A DNA stretch of 61,611 bases, filler included. It is 6 parts of 6 records of this genome, joined end to end, with 100 filler letters (N's around TTAATTAATTAA, not from the genome) between each part and the next. Parts side by side here need not be neighbours in the genome. Positions count along the whole stretch, not along the records: positions 47,338 to 55,186 come from DRR723986_8585; 5 more parts are not named here. One strand, given 5' to 3'. The position numbers and the translations under genes were made by a program. The notes below the pieces were generated by a model. It was given only the letters and a program-made list of their open reading frames with translations, did not search any database and was not told where the DNA came from. The first letter of the stretch is position 1, and the number at the start of each line of letters is the position of its first letter. This document shows positions 49,239-55,286 of this stretch, one piece after another.

Positions 49239-49328
49239 GGAGAGGTGCTAGAGTGGTTGAATAGGCTAGTCTCGAAAACTAGTGAACTCGCAAGGGTTCC
49301 GAGGGTTCGAATCCCTCTCTCTCCGCCA
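49239..49328 (+). tRNA. tRNA-Ser(CGA)
   Basis: GGAGAGG acceptor stem, CTAGT-CT-CGA-AA-ACTAG anticodon arm, long variable arm, GGTTCGAATCC T-arm, encoded CCA. Confidence 0.96.
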
Positions 49329-49495
49329 GCCACACCCCCAAACAGAGAAAAGTACCGTCGCTTCCACGCAAAGCCCCGCACACCGTGGGCTTTGGCGCCA
49401 GGGCTGCGTCTCCGTTTCCGGAACAGGGTAGATTTCGCGCCCGAAATTGGCCGCCGTCTCCAATCGCCAAATGCAACAGTACCCTCAGGCCCGAT

Positions 49496-49686
49496 TTCCC
49501 TGATAACCTGCAATTTACAGGGAAATTCTGCAAAACAACAGGGAAACGCCCCAGAACACGCCGGGAATTCCTCGTGAAATCAGTGGGTTTCGGGAAAATT
49601 CCCTAATCCAGGAACAGGGAATTTCCCGACGACAAACAGGGAAATGATTTCAAAGTACAGGGAACCGTATCGCCAATATCAGGGAG
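49496..49686 (+). repeat. Phased ACAGGGAA direct-repeat array
   Basis: Exact copies at 49517, 49538, 49614, 49636, 49657; degenerate copies at 49560 and 49679; 21-22 bp period; inverted TTCCCTGA at 49496. Confidence 0.9.
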
Positions 49687-51328
49687 CCGCTTCGAACCCC
49701 AGCGCCGTCCATTGTTCATCCCAGTCCAAGGGAATTCCGGACGCTACGAGCTGCGTCAGCGTCAGACCCTCGGGCTGTCGGCCATTCAGGATCGCACCGA
49801 CAATAACAGGCGAAAGGAACGCGAGCTGGATGCGCTGCCGGACCATCAGCGTCTTCCACCCATAACGCGCTGCAATGTCCTTCATGAGGATGCCAGATTT
49901 GATTTCCTCCAGCCAGGAATGCGCGAGAGCAATTATCCGGATCAGCTTCGGGTCCGGAACCGTATGGATCGCTCCAAACACCAGCTTCGATTCCTTCCCG
50001 CGCCGCCTGACCCCGAACGGCGCTTCAAGTTGGAGATGGTTCCAGTCAATGTCTTCTCCCGCCACTCCGAACCACTCGGCGATCACATTCGCAGACAGTG
50101 TGATGTCCAACCGCCCGGCAGAGACCTGCACCCGCTCGATCAGGTCCGCGGCCACATTCCGGGAGAGCCTCCCGAGATTGCTCTTCAGGTTTTCAAGTAA
50201 CAACGGTGTTGGACTGCTGAGGAGCCGGGACACATCACTGTTGATATGCCGGAAGACAGCTTCGCACACGGCGTCTTCCAGCTGCTTCGCCGGTAGCCTC
50301 CAGCCGGAAGCATCCGCCGGTGATCCTGCCAGCAACCGACTCGAGACATAATAGCGATATCGGCGACTACCTTTCTGGGAGTGGGTCGGGGTCAAGAAGT
50401 CACCCGTCTCGTCAAAGATCCGTCCGGTCAGCAAGGCACCAGACCTGGACGGGCATCGGGACTTCTTCGGAGATTTTAGGTCCAGCTGTTCCTGCACACG
50501 ATCCCACAAATCCTGATCCACAATCGCATCATGTATTCCTTCGTGGGATTCCTGCTTATGGCGGATGCGACCGATATAGACCGGGTTGCGTAGGATAAAG
50601 TTGATCTGTCCGCGACTGAGGGGCTTGGAACCCGTTACCTTACCATCGCTGAAGGTCCGCCGCTTGGACCGGTAGCCACGAGCGATGACATCCTGCTCGA
50701 CTAGGCGCAGGCAACCATAGTGGTCATAGAGACGGAAGATTTCCCGGACGATCTCTGCTTCCTTGTCATTGATCACGAGCGTCTGCATTTTCGGATCCGG
50801 ATGCCGGTCATATCCGAGCGGGAGCAGCCCCCCCATCCAGTAGCCCTTCTTCTTCGATGCAGTGATCTTGTCCCGGATACGTTCGGCGGTGACCTCCCGC
50901 TCGAACTGGGCAAATGAGAGCAGCACATTGAGCGTCAGGCGGCCCATACTCGTCGATGTGTTGAACGACTGGGTGACCGAGACGAAGGAGCAGTCCGCGG
51001 CATCGAACCGGTCGACCAGTCTGGCAAAGTCCGCAAGTGACCGGGTGAGCCGGTCGATTTTGTAGACAACCACCAGATCCACCTTGCCATTCGCGATGTC
51101 CTCCAGAAGCCGCTGAAGTGCAGGACGGTCCAGGTTGCCGCCCGACAATCCGCCGTCATCATAGTGCGCCGGGACCAGCTTCCAGCCCTCATGTCGCTGG
51201 CTGGAGATGTAGCTCTCACAGGCTTCCCGCTGGGCATCGAGTGAGTTGAACGCCTGGTCGAGGCCCTCGTCGCTCGATTTGCGGGTATAGATGGCGCAAC
51301 GGATTGTCCGGCGGTCGGGCTTTGTCAT
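49679..51328 (-). CDS. Large serine recombinase
   Basis: CAIYTRKSS catalytic Ser, DRPALQRLL, YKIDRLTRS, FAQFEREVTAERIRD, recombinase domain (RNPVYIG..H..IVD..LW); ATGA overlap with the upstream gene. Confidence 0.93.
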   Translation of the reverse strand: MTKPDRRTIRCAIYTRKSSDEGLDQAFNSLDAQREACESYISSQRHEGWKLVPAHYDDGGLSGGNLDRPALQRLLEDIANGKVDLVVVYKIDRLTRSLADFARLVDRFDAADCSFVSVTQSFNTSTSMGRLTLNVLLSFAQFEREVTAERIRDKITASKKKGYWMGGLLPLGYDRHPDPKMQTLVINDKEAEIVREIFRLYDHYGCLRLVEQDVIARGYRSKRRTFSDGKVTGSKPLSRGQINFILRNPVYIGRIRHKQESHEGIHDAIVDQDLWDRVQEQLDLKSPKKSRCPSRSGALLTGRIFDETGDFLTPTHSQKGSRRYRYYVSSRLLAGSPADASGWRLPAKQLEDAVCEAVFRHINSDVSRLLSSPTPLLLENLKSNLGRLSRNVAADLIERVQVSAGRLDITLSANVIAEWFGVAGEDIDWNHLQLEAPFGVRRRGKESKLVFGAIHTVPDPKLIRIIALAHSWLEEIKSGILMKDIAARYGWKTLMVRQRIQLAFLSPVIVGAILNGRQPEGLTLTQLVASGIPLDWDEQWTALGFEAAP

Positions 51329-51729
51329 GCTGATCCTCTCAGTCCGAAGAAGCGCGGGCCGGACCATTTCGCGCCGGTGATCTCCTTTGCGATGGCTGAG
51401 AGCGAGCGATAGGTCTTGCCGCGATATGAAAAGCCATTGTCGATCCGGTCCACCACATGTGCGACACCGTTCCATTCGCGGACCAGCCGGGCATCGGATC
51501 TGAGTTGGACGGTGGGACTGACTGCTCCGTCCGAATCAGCGATCGACCGAAGCTGCTTTATAAGCCGAAGGTCCTGGCCGCCGTGCTCAGCAGCCTGGGT
51601 TTCGAAGGCGACGATCCGACAGAGCAGGGGCGTGCTCAAGCCCTTCGGTGGCGGCGTGTCGAGTAGTTGCTCGTAACGATCGACCAGGTCGGCGCGAGAG
51701 ATATCTTGAAGTTCAGCCGTAGGCGTCAT
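51325..51729 (-). CDS. DUF2924-like protein
   Basis: RLVREWNG..H.V, F.YRGKTYRSLSAIAKEITGAKWSGPRFFGL. Confidence 0.88.
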   Translation of the reverse strand: MTPTAELQDISRADLVDRYEQLLDTPPPKGLSTPLLCRIVAFETQAAEHGGQDLRLIKQLRSIADSDGAVSPTVQLRSDARLVREWNGVAHVVDRIDNGFSYRGKTYRSLSAIAKEITGAKWSGPRFFGLRGSA

Positions 51730-51980
51730 TTCTTCGCTCCAACGATGCGGTAGCGGGATTGGCGCGAGCCTTCTGCTGGCTCCAGCTTCTCCACCTCGAT
51801 CCCGGCCTGCTTTAGGCGGGTGAGCGCAGCGCGAGTTGTGTGCGTCTGCCAGCCGAGTTTTGTGGAGAGTGCTTCAATGGTCATACCCTCAGGATTGGCG
51901 AGGAGGCTTTTGAGCTGATCTGTTTTCGAAGCCCTGGCTTTGGGCTGCGGAGCGGCGCGGGTGGATTTGCGGTTTTTCAT
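51726..51980 (-). CDS. DUF3489-like winged-helix protein
   Basis: SK...L..LL..PEG.TI..L....GWQTHTTRAALT.L...YRI; AAGGA RBS before ATG 51980. Confidence 0.82.
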   Translation of the reverse strand: MKNRKSTRAAPQPKARASKTDQLKSLLANPEGMTIEALSTKLGWQTHTTRAALTRLKQAGIEVEKLEPAEGSRQSRYRIVGAKK

Positions 51981-52108
51981 CGGGTTTCCTTTCAGGTCTG
52001 AGGAAGCGATCAGTGCTTCCACGACCCGAAGGCCCGAGGATTTTCCGGGCGTTCGCGATGTCGTCCGCGACAGGAATAGCAATGCTCGGAATAAGGCTGC
52101 AGTCCAGT

Positions 52109-52336
52109 CTATTCGCTCTGTGAGCGGATATACTTCAACATAGCGGCCTCGGCTTTTCCGCAGTGAGATTTTGCCTTGTCGAGTAGGGCGCCAAGAGACT
52201 GTATCTCCCGGAGGCGCTTTTCGTCAGGAAGAACAGGCAGTTGAGCTTCTACGGCCTGCTCGCAGGCATCTTCAGCAGCTTCCAGTACCTTTATGATCCT
52301 GCGGCGGATTTGGTCGATGGCGTCCATGTCGGACAC
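52109..52336 (-). CDS. Small helical hypothetical protein
   Basis: 75-aa ORF with amphipathic helical pattern, co-oriented with the element core; start GTG 52336 or ATG 52327. Confidence 0.55.
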   Translation of the reverse strand: MSDMDAIDQIRRRIIKVLEAAEDACEQAVEAQLPVLPDEKRLREIQSLGALLDKAKSHCGKAEAAMLKYIRSQSE

Positions 52337-52576
52337 GTGCGCTCAGGTAGGCGCAGAAGTCCACGTTGCTACCTGGTGCTTCGGCTGGAAAATCCCGGAA
52401 GCAGTCATAAGCGCATCGACTACCCGACAACCGAGAATCGTCCGAGGGGTTATTAGCGGCTTGATGGCTAAAGGTCGGTCTAAATCCATTTAGACAAATG
52501 TAACGCAGCGCGGAACTGCGGTTAGAAAAGCAAAGGCCGTTTCCAGCGTACGCCGGTATTGATATATATATTGCCC

Positions 52577-54052
52577 ATGAGCGACGCCAAGCCGACCAAA
52601 ACAACGAACCCGATCCACTTCGAAGACCTTGATCCCAAGCGATTTGAAGACCTCGTTCGTGAGCTGATTTACGACTTCCGTGATTGGCAGACGATAGAAG
52701 CGACGGGGAAGGGGGGTGACGATGATGGCTTTGACATCAGAGCTTATGAGCGCACCACTACAACTGTCGTTGATGATGACGGCAACGAGGTTGTCCGCCC
52801 GATGGATGGTAACCTCTGGATGGTCCAGTGCAAACGTGAGAAGAGCATTCCGCCGAGCAAGGTAAAGAAAATCTTGAAGGATATCGATCCTGAGAACCCA
52901 CCGTACGGATACATCCTAGCGGCTGCGGCTAACTTCTCCAAAAAGTCCTACGACACCTTTCGTGATGAGCTAACAAAATTAGGCGTCTTAGAATTCTATC
53001 TTTGGGGCAATGCCACGCTCGAAACCGAGCTGCATCAACCAAAGAACGACAGAATCCTATTCACTTTTTTTGGCATATCGAATGTTCGGCGAAGGCGTTC
53101 GCGTGCCACCGAAATCAGATCAGAGGTGACGAACAAGAACCGCGTTATGCGAATTCTTGGAGATCGCCTATCAAACTCCTGGATTTTGGCCCGGGACTCT
53201 AAGGATCGCCACTACCCGTACGAGTCGCGCTACGCAGATTTCGAGGAAAGGCCGCGGTGGAAGGACTACGAAGTTGTCGAACTGCATCCGCGGGGCGTGA
53301 TCGTCTCGGTGAAGCAGTGCTATGCGTGGTTCGACGACGAAAAGAAGACCTACGATCTTGCTGAGCCACCGATCTTTATAAACAACCCATACGACCGAAA
53401 CCACGATACGCAACGAGATCGGGAGAAGCGGGAGGCAGATGGTCTCGTCAGAGATTTTTGGGAACGGCTACCCAAGAAGCACCAGGCGATGTTCCATCTC
53501 AACGGTATCATTCGCTACGAAGACATGCTGGTCATTGATGATAAAGGTGACAGCTGGAACGAGGTTCCTCATATCTTTGTGGACTTTATGGAGGGTTCGC
53601 CTGTGTCTGGAACCCTTGAATTTCTAGAGAAGGCAGAGCGGCACATCTGGCTTGACGATTTCTCGCGAGTGGAGGTCTTTCCGAAGTCGTTTCCTCAACC
53701 GCAGTTCGGTGAAGTCTACGATGAGGAAGGGCTGGCTTTGCCCGACACCATAAGTGAGCAGATCGCCAACTTCCGAGGTAATCTCGACACACTGTATGAT
53801 GTTGACGGTCGGTTCGGCCACCTAAAGCCAGGCGATGTCGCGGTCGTTCGGTTCGGCAACAAGGACGGCCGCTTTATACAGATCACTCATCGGTACAAGT
53901 TGTCGGGCAGCGACATGCTTCGGGATGCGCCGCACCTGACTTGGCAAATCAAACAGCAGATTGAACGAGAGCCGACAGCCGATGATGTGTTGGATGTGCT
54001 TGAATTCCGCGCTTGCTACGAGCATCAGTGGAAGGGGCAGCACCACAACTGA
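52577..54052 (+). CDS. Mrr-like restriction endonuclease domain protein with uncharacterised C-terminus
   Basis: LDPKRFEDLV..L, G..DDGFDI..(x)n..VQCK PD-(D/E)XK variant at the N-terminus. Confidence 0.75.
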   Translation: MSDAKPTKTTNPIHFEDLDPKRFEDLVRELIYDFRDWQTIEATGKGGDDDGFDIRAYERTTTTVVDDDGNEVVRPMDGNLWMVQCKREKSIPPSKVKKILKDIDPENPPYGYILAAAANFSKKSYDTFRDELTKLGVLEFYLWGNATLETELHQPKNDRILFTFFGISNVRRRRSRATEIRSEVTNKNRVMRILGDRLSNSWILARDSKDRHYPYESRYADFEERPRWKDYEVVELHPRGVIVSVKQCYAWFDDEKKTYDLAEPPIFINNPYDRNHDTQRDREKREADGLVRDFWERLPKKHQAMFHLNGIIRYEDMLVIDDKGDSWNEVPHIFVDFMEGSPVSGTLEFLEKAERHIWLDDFSRVEVFPKSFPQPQFGEVYDEEGLALPDTISEQIANFRGNLDTLYDVDGRFGHLKPGDVAVVRFGNKDGRFIQITHRYKLSGSDMLRDAPHLTWQIKQQIEREPTADDVLDVLEFRACYEHQWKGQHHN

Positions 54053-54314
54053 TCTATTTACTCTAGCACTTGAAACGCCCCCCACACACATTCCTTGCTG
54101 TGCGACATTGAACCTTCGGGGGGAAGCTTCGTCAACAAAGTGGCCTCACACACCACTTGGCGAGAACGTTCGTAAAGTGCGAACGGCTGCCAAGGCGCTT
54201 CCAATTCTATGTCTGGACTTGCGCCCAAGGCTGACGTCCGTATTGGGTGACAAAAGGTCTAGGTTGGCTTTTGGAAGGTGGCGGAACGAATGTCCATTTC
54301 TTACCGTACAAAGC

Positions 54315-55157
54315 CTATTTCACTTTAGGATATGCTGGCCATCCTTGAATATCCCGATTGATTGGGTCGTTCATGAAGAAGTCGAAGTACTTTACGGCCT
54401 GAGAAAGGGCATCGACCTGATCATCCGTCTTTCCTTCTGGGAACGCCCGAAGCTCGGCTTCAAAGTCATCGAGCCATGGAGCGGATTTTGGCAGAAACAC
54501 CTTCCCGGCGGCGATTGAGATCATGGCTGCTTCCATTCGCGCGACCTTGTTCCCCGTGGGTGTAATTCCCTGAATGAGGCTGGGGTATCGTATCAGCTTG
54601 TCTTCACGCCCTGCGTACTTCCGCAATATGCCCGTGATCAGTTCTCTGCCATTTGCCGTCTTCTCGATCACCATCCGGTCAAAATCGTACTTCGCATCAG
54701 CCTCCAAGACGATGTCCAGAAGGTCGTACAAGGATAATTTCTTGCGTATGACGTTGGTAACATAAAGTCTTCCATTGGAAATTCTTCCGACGAGAATTAC
54801 GTCATACGATTTTGAGGCAGCACCAGAGGATGCATCTACACTTATAAAGCGATCGTCCCAAACTTTGGGCGGGGTTTCATAACGCTTGAACTTGCAAAGA
54901 TCGATCAAGCCTCCGCCGAGCGGAGTCGGGTGTTGCTGAAACTGTGAGGAAAAAGCCCGCGGCGTCATCGTCCGTCGGCGCTTTTCTAATTCCTCGAGAG
55001 GGTAGTGGGATTCGTGAAAAGACTCTCCGGCCTTGCGATGGTGAAAGAGGCCAGGGCCTGTTGGGATCTTCTCATCATTCTCGGCTATCGCCGAGATCTT
55101 GAGCACCTCGAAATCTCCCCGATTTAAGAAGTGACCGGCCAAGTCATATTCGGAAAG
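54315..55157 (-). pseudogene. Phage terminase large subunit C-terminal (nuclease) portion, 5' part cut off
   Basis: DLAGH, FSSQFQQHP, ISVDAS, IEK.ANG, ELRAFPEGKTDDQVDALSQA; in-frame TGA at 55170-55172 within unrelated upstream sequence. Confidence 0.75.
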
Positions 55158-55186
55158 GGTAGCGTCCCATCAGGTGGTGTAATTCG
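55158..55186. mobile_element. Probable IS terminal inverted repeat (IS256-like) at contig end
   Basis: GGTAGCGTCCCATCAGGTGGTGTAATTCG resembles, from recall, alphaproteobacterial IS256-family ends; coincides with loss of terminase-like sequence and with the assembly break. Confidence 0.5.
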
Positions 55187-55286
55187 NNNNNNNNNNNNNN
55201 NNNNNNNNNNNNNNNNNNNNNNNNNNNNNNTTAATTAATTAANNNNNNNNNNNNNNNNNNNNNNNNNNNNNNNNNNNNNNNNNNNN
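55187..55286. other. Artificial contig spacer
   Basis: N-run with TTAATTAATTAA. Confidence 0.99.

Follow-up and report, generated by a model that had tools for sequence, protein, structure and literature searches.

A tRNA-Ser(CGA) gene whose 3′ end is followed by a serine recombinase operon, a nuclease gene and part of a terminase gene, with no virion gene in sight, raises the question of what kind of mobile element resides there and how it might travel. The locus lies in a window of 61.6 kb (the whole stretch of DNA analysed here), in which six draft contigs are joined via five N...TTAATTAATTAA...N linkers. Because these linkers join separate draft contigs, gene neighbourhoods across them are artificial. 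The element belongs solely to the 7.85-kb contig at 47338-55186, where the locus is cut by an artificial linker at 55187; a first-pass annotation had described it from the sequence alone. We find that the locus belongs to a family of elements with a two-module core: an integration module (DUF3489, DUF2924 and a large serine recombinase) and a packaging initiation module (a methyltransferase, DUF5681 and the large terminase subunit, TerL). The integration module often lies directly at a tRNA or tmRNA gene, on its 3′ side, and an array of CAGGGAA heptamers and a variable slot for defence genes accompany the core. The packaging module is phage-derived, and the family is devoid of portal, capsid, tail, lysis and replication genes. 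Judged from its sequence, the window probably holds one end of a compact integrative element that packages itself into the capsids of a helper.

A shared core of integration and packaging genes

The terminase fragment at the end of the contig (Table 1) matches phrog_38 (1.3e-48) and TIGR01630 (3.6e-18; 66.5 bits against a cut-off of 41.65) and shares 94% identity with P0001, a full-length TerL of 489 aa, over residues 210-489 of the latter. It carries the residues that align to the family-invariant D317, D455 and D458, as befits a TerL nuclease domain. The half with the Walker A and B motifs, present in P0001 and in the relatives, lies beyond the contig end. Since the last 29 nt of the contig (55158-55186) do not align with TerL relatives and contain an in-frame stop, we read the window gene as cut by the assembly and not as a conserved short form. 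The 29-nt stretch may mark the border of an insertion or be noise from the end of the assembly; a transposon edge is unsupported, the terminal 25-mer being found nowhere else in the window. Across 34 TerLs, the invariant residues include Lys-Ser in Walker A, Asp-Asp in Walker B and three Asp of the nuclease (roles assigned by eye), and the family profile matches the solved TerLs 8dgc and 4bij.

Relatives were sought with an alignment of these 34 TerL sequences, P0001 being its first row, in one genome per species and were ranked by TerL similarity; the best 80 of 551 confirmed TerL loci (L003-L082) constitute the survey. With P0001 as sole query, the same one-genome-per-species scan returned no relative. 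The 80 loci represent 77 distinct TerL sequences at <95% nucleotide identity, with three near-copy pairs. Open reading frames (ORFs) were clustered, hidden Markov models derived from the clusters were run on six-frame translations, and families were named by Pfam; the resulting gene counts are lower bounds, because many loci are cut by contig ends. TerL is present in 80/80 loci, DUF5681 directly upstream of it in 70, the methyltransferase in 66, a large serine recombinase within 10 kb in 42, DUF2924 in 36 and DUF3489 in 24, and every other gene cluster occurs in at most 7 of the 80.

DUF5681 (~140 aa), directly upstream of TerL, occupies the position of a small terminase. The DUF5681 ORF of Leptospira phage LE3 overlaps the TerL start, and the portal gene comes next. 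A structural model of DUF5681 (pLDDT 73.3) had no match in the PDB, and BFVD gave only other DUF5681 proteins. The methyltransferase (~450 aa), which precedes DUF5681, combines a ParB_N domain with an N6/N4 DNA methyltransferase. These two core genes lie beyond the contig end and were missed by the first-pass annotation, whose list otherwise stands for the genes in the window, including the small ORF, the opposed Mrr-like gene and the co-oriented terminase fragment.

The two modules are arranged in several ways. In 17 loci, as in the window, the trio of methyltransferase, DUF5681 and TerL, the cargo and the integration operon all read toward the tRNA; in 15, the integration operon diverges from the trio; in 8, the recombinase lies upstream of the trio and co-oriented with it; in 2, it lies downstream of TerL and reads toward it; and in 38, it is not found within 10 kb. 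The nearest of the 80 loci, L003 from Hyphomonas atlantica, shares gene order and orientation with the window: the methyltransferase, DUF5681 and TerL genes are separated by 7 kb of cargo from DUF3489, DUF2924 and the recombinase, after which comes the 3′ end of the same tRNA. Its recombinase is 88% identical to that of the window and its DUF2924 and DUF3489 proteins 84% each, whereas the TerLs are only 48-49% identical. These figures point to different histories of the two modules, and the element seems to be a mosaic, with integration and packaging modules exchanged between elements. The TerL tree mixes host families and does not follow host taxonomy, and some genomes hold several copies (Aestuariicoccus, with two trios at L006 plus L081; Silicimonas, with L005 and L010). 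As a separate observation, a 6.2-kb stretch of element is 99.2% identical between L013 and L014, which come from Marinosulfonomonas (alphaproteobacterial) and Methylophaga (gammaproteobacterial) bins; this reflects either very recent transfer or a binning error.

Integration at tRNA genes and the heptamer array

As had been noted at first sight, the DUF3489, DUF2924 and recombinase genes form a translationally coupled operon in which both ATGA overlaps are real. At 51729-51726, the DUF3489 stop overlaps the DUF2924 start; at 51328-51325, the DUF2924 stop overlaps an internal ATG, Met50 of the long recombinase ORF, and for this reason 51328 is the most likely recombinase start. The recombinase contains a Resolvase domain (PF00239, 1.2e-38) and a Recombinase domain (PF07508, 1.5e-13, residues 238-332 of the 598-aa frame); it matches the phrog_95 integrase (5.8e-98), and its C-terminal 110 aa match phrog_14161. 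No zinc-ribbon or coiled-coil domain was called separately by Pfam. The catalytic motif Y14-T15-R16-x-S18 is invariant across 16 aligned relatives. By its predicted domains, the protein has the feature set of a phage-type large serine recombinase, namely a catalytic serine domain, a Recombinase domain and a long C-terminal region.

Of the 42 loci with a recombinase match, 36 have DUF2924 next to the recombinase gene, as do phages AcaML1 and WO. DUF2924 is a candidate recombinase accessory or DNA-binding factor. Its profile found no solved relative, and its model (pLDDT 78.5) had no PDB match at E≤1e-3, with a weak hit to a chain of an MPND-DNA complex (E 1.8). DUF3489 weakly matches EutK, Csa3 and CARF proteins bearing winged helix-turn-helix domains and is fused to a MarR-like domain in L028; it is a probable winged-helix DNA binder. 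Tandem pairs of integration modules were observed beside one tRNA gene in three relatives (L018, 1889-7153; L044, 6144-10999; L030, 14800-20077), which suggests that elements inserted there one after the other or that they form a tandem array.

A near-full recombinase is encoded at 29 loci, in 16 of which its 3′ end lies within 3 kb of a tRNA or tmRNA gene, the distance being 176-658 nt in 12 of them. The targets comprise seven tRNA species, tRNA-Ser (gga, gct, cga), Glu, Arg, Pro and Gln, as well as tmRNA. In the window, 350 nt of non-coding DNA separate tRNA-Ser from the recombinase operon, and the tRNA-proximal part is 83% identical to that of H. atlantica throughout, down to the tRNA. In an alignment of 11 tRNA-Ser-proximal regions, similarity among elements at different tRNA-Ser genes starts exactly at the tRNA 3′ end, and on this basis we place, rather than map, the putative attL crossover at or just past that end. 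GTCTC motifs followed by GGT(A/C)CG recur between tRNA and heptamer array (49400-49470 in the window) in elements at different tRNA genes and are candidate binding sites for the recombinase or an accessory protein. Apart from the tRNA, Rfam and promoter and terminator scans gave nothing at the locus.

The repeat array that the first-pass annotation had reported next to the tRNA is present, and it is not an incidental feature. It holds 6 of the 11 CAGGGAA copies of the whole window; since the window-wide count is not above chance (8.85 expected), it is the clustering and not the number that is remarkable. Arrays of 3-6 copies (threshold, ≥3) occur in 22 of the 80 relatives, in Hyphomonas, Paracoccaceae, Caulobacterales, Sphingomonadales and Hyphomicrobiales, where they adjoin the recombinase stop or the att site or lie 0.3-1.2 kb upstream of the methyltransferase, usually as one inverted copy followed by direct copies. 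The heptamer is not present in low-GC members. At least 8 loci devoid of recombinase, DUF2924 and DUF3489 have kept the array (L011, L012, L052, L055, L062, L064, L072 and L075). The array is a conserved cis element and a candidate pac or recognition site. Because it persists where the integration genes are gone, DUF5681 or the ParB_N-methyltransferase would be a more likely binder than the integration proteins.

The same array could serve another mode of packaging. It lies at the element edge in a fixed orientation, recombinase-less copies persist with it, and the family has no replication genes, all of which would fit packaging in place: the terminase would cut at the array and package the island together with the adjacent chromosome, akin to lateral transduction, and the recombinase would serve for arrival only. 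Lateral transduction of defence genes driven by phages or by phage-inducible chromosomal islands (PICIs) is described in excerpts of a published study (PMC12829572). DNA packaged in this way would, however, have one-sided homology and integrate poorly in a recipient without the element, and we consider packaging without excision improbable.

Element boundaries, cargo and the search for virion genes

Homologous loci were surveyed for morphogenesis modules, as the first-pass annotation had proposed, and none was found, so that its reading of the locus survives on this point. Pfam scans took in 397 non-core flanking ORFs (77+74+112+104+30). They reached the downstream flank of TerL in 62 of the 80 loci, where, as a minimum, every ORF of ≥200 aa lying within 5.5 kb was included; the flanks of the remaining 18 loci are too short. 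Portal, capsid, protease, tail and lysis families were found in 0 of these 397 ORFs. None of 43 unknown ORFs from bounded elements fell into a structural family of PHROGs, one of them being a detached TerL tail, and bounded elements contained no primase, helicase-replicase or AlpA gene. The window contig carries no capsid, portal, tail or conjugation gene, in agreement with the first impression, and relaxase, coupling protein and type IV secretion genes were found neither there nor in bounded relatives.

These results bear on the alternative that the locus is a degraded prophage, which had been left standing at the outset, or the end of an ordinary prophage with its morphogenesis genes on the missing contig. 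All core genes do have phage relatives, and TerL shares ~30-33% identity with siphovirus TerLs; the complete phages AcaML1 and WO carry a recombinase paired with DUF2924 as well as a ParB-methyltransferase; and the contig ends inside TerL, its last 29 nt being aberrant. Nevertheless, true phages have a portal gene after TerL, where the window has an opposed nuclease gene and the integration operon, and 77 distinct sequences from several phyla have the same compact set of genes. Given the flanks without virion genes, the closeness of host genes and a deposited record with five genes only (see below), we regard a prophage origin of this kind as highly improbable.

Several relatives show where the elements end. 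Host genes, including those for Nramp, TonB receptors, cytochrome oxidase, citrate synthase and phosphoglucomutase, start 0.3-3 kb past TerL or the methyltransferase. L024 extends over 15.6 kb between two direct copies of an 18-nt stretch from the tmRNA 3′ end, and in L009 only ~7.8 kb separate tRNA-Ser from the first host gene (Nramp). L076, between an insertion sequence and tRNA-Ser(cga), is ~6.2 kb long and contains only the methyltransferase, DUF5681, TerL, DUF2924 and recombinase genes. The same five core genes alone make up MT839917.1, an unverified 5,365-bp "Bacteriophage sp." scaffold with non-overlapping ends, so that the smallest members comprise five genes in 5.4 kb. A second scaffold, MT837927.1 (6 kb), has DUF2924 at its start, along with a recombinase from the same clade, but gives no TerL match. 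From the relatives, we estimate a size of ~8.5-11 kb for the element in full, of which the window would hold the tRNA-proximal 5.9 kb, roughly two thirds. The missing part would therefore be about a third rather than the distal half, as first thought, and would consist of the ATPase half of TerL, DUF5681 and the methyltransferase. A tblastn search of the window, in which P0001, two DUF5681 proteins and the methyltransferase of L003 served as queries, found no further piece of the element.

Downstream of TerL, and sometimes between recombinase and tRNA, the elements have a variable slot that often contains defence genes, as recognized by PADLOC and Pfam; the defence cargo surmised from the window alone is thereby borne out in the relatives. 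Examples are SIR2-HerA and PDC-S41 (L003), Thoeris ThsB (L053), QatC, an RmrA-like protein and PDC-S31 (L063), PDC-S26 nucleases, WYL and RtcB (L024), an AAA_21 ATPase with a UvrD helicase (L049) and REase-ARP (L040). In the window, the slot is occupied by a 491-aa protein with an N-terminal Mrr_cat domain of the PD-(D/E)xK type (PF04471, residues 23-135; 2.7e-05, 24.7 bits against a cut-off of 21, weak but above it), in which a D...QxK-type motif is discernible by eye, followed by a C-terminal region of 350 aa. By sequence, it thus qualifies as an Mrr-type nuclease. The protein family has at least 814 relatives of ~490-500 aa in many phyla, some of which are labelled "restriction endonuclease" in their sources; no solved relative was found, and the C-terminal region had no usable match in the ESM Atlas. 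Window proteins gave only weak PADLOC matches, that of the nuclease being to PDC-M58A. Domain and slot make the protein a candidate single-gene restriction or defence enzyme. The 75-aa ORF next to it, for which tblastn gave no match at the 80 loci, could be part of the cargo or a spurious frame. As a further observation, ERF- or Rad52-type annealing proteins fused to DUF968 lie beside the trio in L033 (9605-10927), L067 (6131-7246) and L080 (5052-7284), accompanied in L080 by a YqaJ exonuclease, and are a possible recombination accessory module of some members.

On its other side, the tRNA-Ser gene is flanked by genes for a GNAT acetyltransferase and ribosomal protein L21. From 55287 onward, the window continues with an unrelated contig, which carries an ABC ATPase and begins with two ORFs that look by eye like ribosomal proteins (unscanned).

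Table 1. Positions of the features of the locus and of the contig joints along the window.
Feature	Position	Strand	Description
Linkers	7182, 19602, 33335, 47282, 55231		joints between contigs
Ribosomal protein L21 ORF	48431-49168	-	245 aa; C-terminal HHH_5 (helix-hairpin-helix) match besides the L21 domain
tRNA-Ser(CGA)	49239-49328	+	ARAGORN; Rfam tRNA, 54.1 bits; 3′ end toward the element; integration target
att-proximal non-coding segment	49329-49495	.	GTCTC-type motifs at ~49406-49414 and 49454-49461, recurring in relatives
CAGGGAA heptamer array	49496-49664	.	six exact copies in 169 nt, orientation -+++++, plus degenerate and palindromic copies
Large serine recombinase	49679-51328	-	549 aa from ATG 51328; open frame reaches 51475 (598 aa)
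DUF2924	51325-51729	-	134 aa; PF11149, 4.6e-33; ATGA overlaps at both ends, coupled to recombinase
DUF3489	51726-52082	-	118 aa; PF11994, 3.3e-17; first gene of the operon
75-aa ORF	52109-52336	-	sub-threshold coiled-coil-type Pfam match only
Mrr-type nuclease gene	52577-54052	+	491 aa; ATG 52577 likely start; opposed to the operon
TerL fragment	54315-55157	-	3′ 280 codons: linker and RNaseH-like nuclease domain; stopped by contig end
Contig end and linker	55158-55286	.	29 nt non-homologous, in-frame stop, then N/TTAATTAATTAA linker

Proposed life cycle and relation to known satellites

If the element does package itself into helper capsids, its life cycle may be pictured as follows. The recombinase, with DUF2924 and DUF3489 as its DNA-binding helpers or regulators, would excise the element from the tRNA 3′ end and integrate it there. 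Abundant procapsids would come from a helper phage or, possibly, from a gene transfer agent; DUF5681 would act as small terminase on the CAGGGAA array, and the element's own TerL would cut the element DNA and pump it into the helper capsids. The methyltransferase would pre-methylate the DNA against restriction in the next host, and the cargo would guard the host, and hence the element, from other phages. The first-pass annotation had likewise proposed a class of packaging-parasitic elements: the recurrent, small integrative class is observed among the relatives, and the packaging parasitism is deduced from gene content.

A number of points weigh against this proposal. Excision, packaging, use of a helper and transfer are all read from the genes present, and the roles of DUF5681 and DUF2924, neither of which has a significant structural match, from position alone. 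The family has no replication gene, which makes it hard to see a circle of 5-16 kb filling a phage head. The duplication of an att site or tRNA end that the first-pass annotation had expected at the distal edge was found as an exact repeat of ≥13 nt in only 1 of the 24 loci tested, the tmRNA repeat of L024, and not in the other 23; a 14-nt repeat match in L035 was discarded as an att site because it falls inside TerL. On the methyltransferase side, both the window copy and L003 reach a contig end. TerL, which is single-frame and near full length in 67 of the 80 loci, has in-frame stops, frameshifts or truncations in the other 13. The in-frame stops of seven relatives (L007, 10208; L008, 2807; L009, 10328; L022, 11105; L034, 11045; L045, 2359 and 2614; L061, 2759) are TAG, TGA and TAA at differing places; programmed recoding was therefore rejected, and the stops are read as early decay. 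Finally, 38 of the 80 loci have no recombinase within 10 kb, 11 of them despite at least 8 kb of flank on both sides, and three Hyphobacterium species (L020, L067 and L074) form one recombinase-less TerL clade with the trio, which looks like a vertically inherited, immobilised copy. A simple satellite model does not predict trios without a recombinase, and the trio could have a function at the level of the host.

Such a function would make the trio a module beneficial to the host and the mere cargo of the recombinase. It could hijack or block the procapsids of invading phages, or its methyltransferase and terminase could act as a restriction-like pair, the former marking self DNA and the latter, a nuclease and translocase, cutting unmarked DNA. 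The recombinase-less loci and the prevalence of intact TerL both accord with this, as do the Hyphobacterium clade, in which L020 and L074 lie beside the same phosphoglucomutase gene, and the constant adjacency of the trio to the slot with defence genes. PADLOC, on the other hand, recognises only a generic methyltransferase in it. In a tree test of recombinase loss on 48 labelled rows (19 short-flank rows were left unlabelled), the recombinase-less loci were scattered over the TerL tree, with at least 8 changes, and were no more clustered than shuffled labels. Recombinase fragments remain at some of these loci (e.g., L031, L073, L016 and L058), and the CAGGGAA array and a tRNA still flank some. 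The scatter and the leftover fragments argue for repeated decay of a mobile element. We consider a host-level role of the trio unlikely, and give it what credence it retains because three Hyphobacterium species share a recombinase-less trio.

The proposed self-packaging element can be set against the known satellites. PICIs, among them the pathogenicity islands of Staphylococcus aureus (SaPIs), are small islands that redirect helper packaging via their own small terminase and often carry defence genes. They encode a primase-replicase, AlpA- or Stl-type regulators and genes for capsid-size redirection, and they use the TerL of the helper. The present family is devoid of those genes and brings its own TerL along with the ParB_N-methyltransferase, which sets it apart from the PICIs and SaPIs. 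Capsid-forming PICIs (cfPICIs) are described, in the sections of the source available, as integrative satellites with their own small and large terminase whose core also includes capsid, portal, protease and head-tail adaptor or connector genes (PMC10085698). The family resembles them in having its own TerL and a gene in the small-terminase position, whereas the capsid, portal, protease and adaptor or connector genes were found neither in the window copy nor in its relatives, and its integrase, a large serine recombinase, comes coupled with DUF2924 and DUF3489.

To our knowledge, the PICI-like elements (PLEs) of Vibrio cholerae have no virion genes. They are satellites with a serine recombinase as integrase (excerpt of PMC9618062) and manipulate the packaging motor of the helper without encoding one (excerpt of PMC11417361). 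In the portions of the literature at hand, PLEs also defend their host. They replicate with their own initiator and share only the integrase class with the family. Marine VEIMEs, integrative elements of 5-12 kb, some of which have serine recombinases and small-terminase homologues and occur in Alphaproteobacteria, come close by description; the same excerpt mentions no TerL for them and places TerL among the helper functions (PMC9618062), and it is by this description only that the family is set apart. The phage defence elements and I23/I44/I55-type islands of Pseudomonas, as part of one report has them, are islands at tmRNA and tRNA 3′ ends with variable defence cargo that are moved by helper phages (PMC12595487). 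They are likewise small and without genes for autonomous transfer; they differ in having a tyrosine integrase with AlpA and no terminase and in being packaged wholly by the helper, again as far as the excerpt goes. Collectively, cfPICIs, PICIs, PLEs, VEIMEs and tyrosine-integrase islands are each at odds with the family in at least one defining feature.

Links to temperate phages are also apparent. Wolbachia phage WO and Acidithiobacillus phage AcaML1 have a recombinase with DUF2924 immediately upstream (PMC10299305, in part); their recombinases belong to the same clade and are 35-49% identical, and both phages have a ParB-type methyltransferase. They differ from the family in being complete phages of 59-66 kb with portal, capsid, baseplate and tail genes. 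In AcaML1, the recombinase-DUF2924 pair lies at one end, accompanied by two methyltransferases and a full terminase-portal-capsid-baseplate set, with a terminase annotated as Nu1/gpA-type. Since WO and AcaML1 are true temperate phages, the DUF2924-recombinase pair is not specific to satellites. This recombinase clade is rare among deposited phages, with 9 of 50,697 records; these comprise WO and AcaML1, a record from Ralstonia and two short scaffolds of faecal origin.

In open-access main texts and bioRxiv preprints, supplements aside, we found no published description of an element with this core, and the family is apparently undescribed. A broader and more tentative suggestion is that it represents a widespread class, in Alphaproteobacteria and beyond, of minimal satellites that combine a terminase holoenzyme and a methyltransferase with a CAGGGAA packaging signal and DUF2924-assisted integration, act as shuttles of defence genes and, in Alphaproteobacteria, may even be loaded into the heads of gene transfer agents instead of phage heads. 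The recombinase clade and its tRNA targets are of possible interest as serine integrases for genome engineering. Known satellites either borrow the terminase of the helper or build their own capsid; if the proposed mechanism is true, the elements described here would embody a new satellite strategy, in which only the packaging enzyme and its recognition site are supplied and everything else is stolen. It would also provide the first functional hypotheses for DUF2924, DUF3489 and DUF5681, and in the Alphaproteobacteria of sea and soil, from which few satellites are known, the family would constitute a portable hotspot of defence genes.

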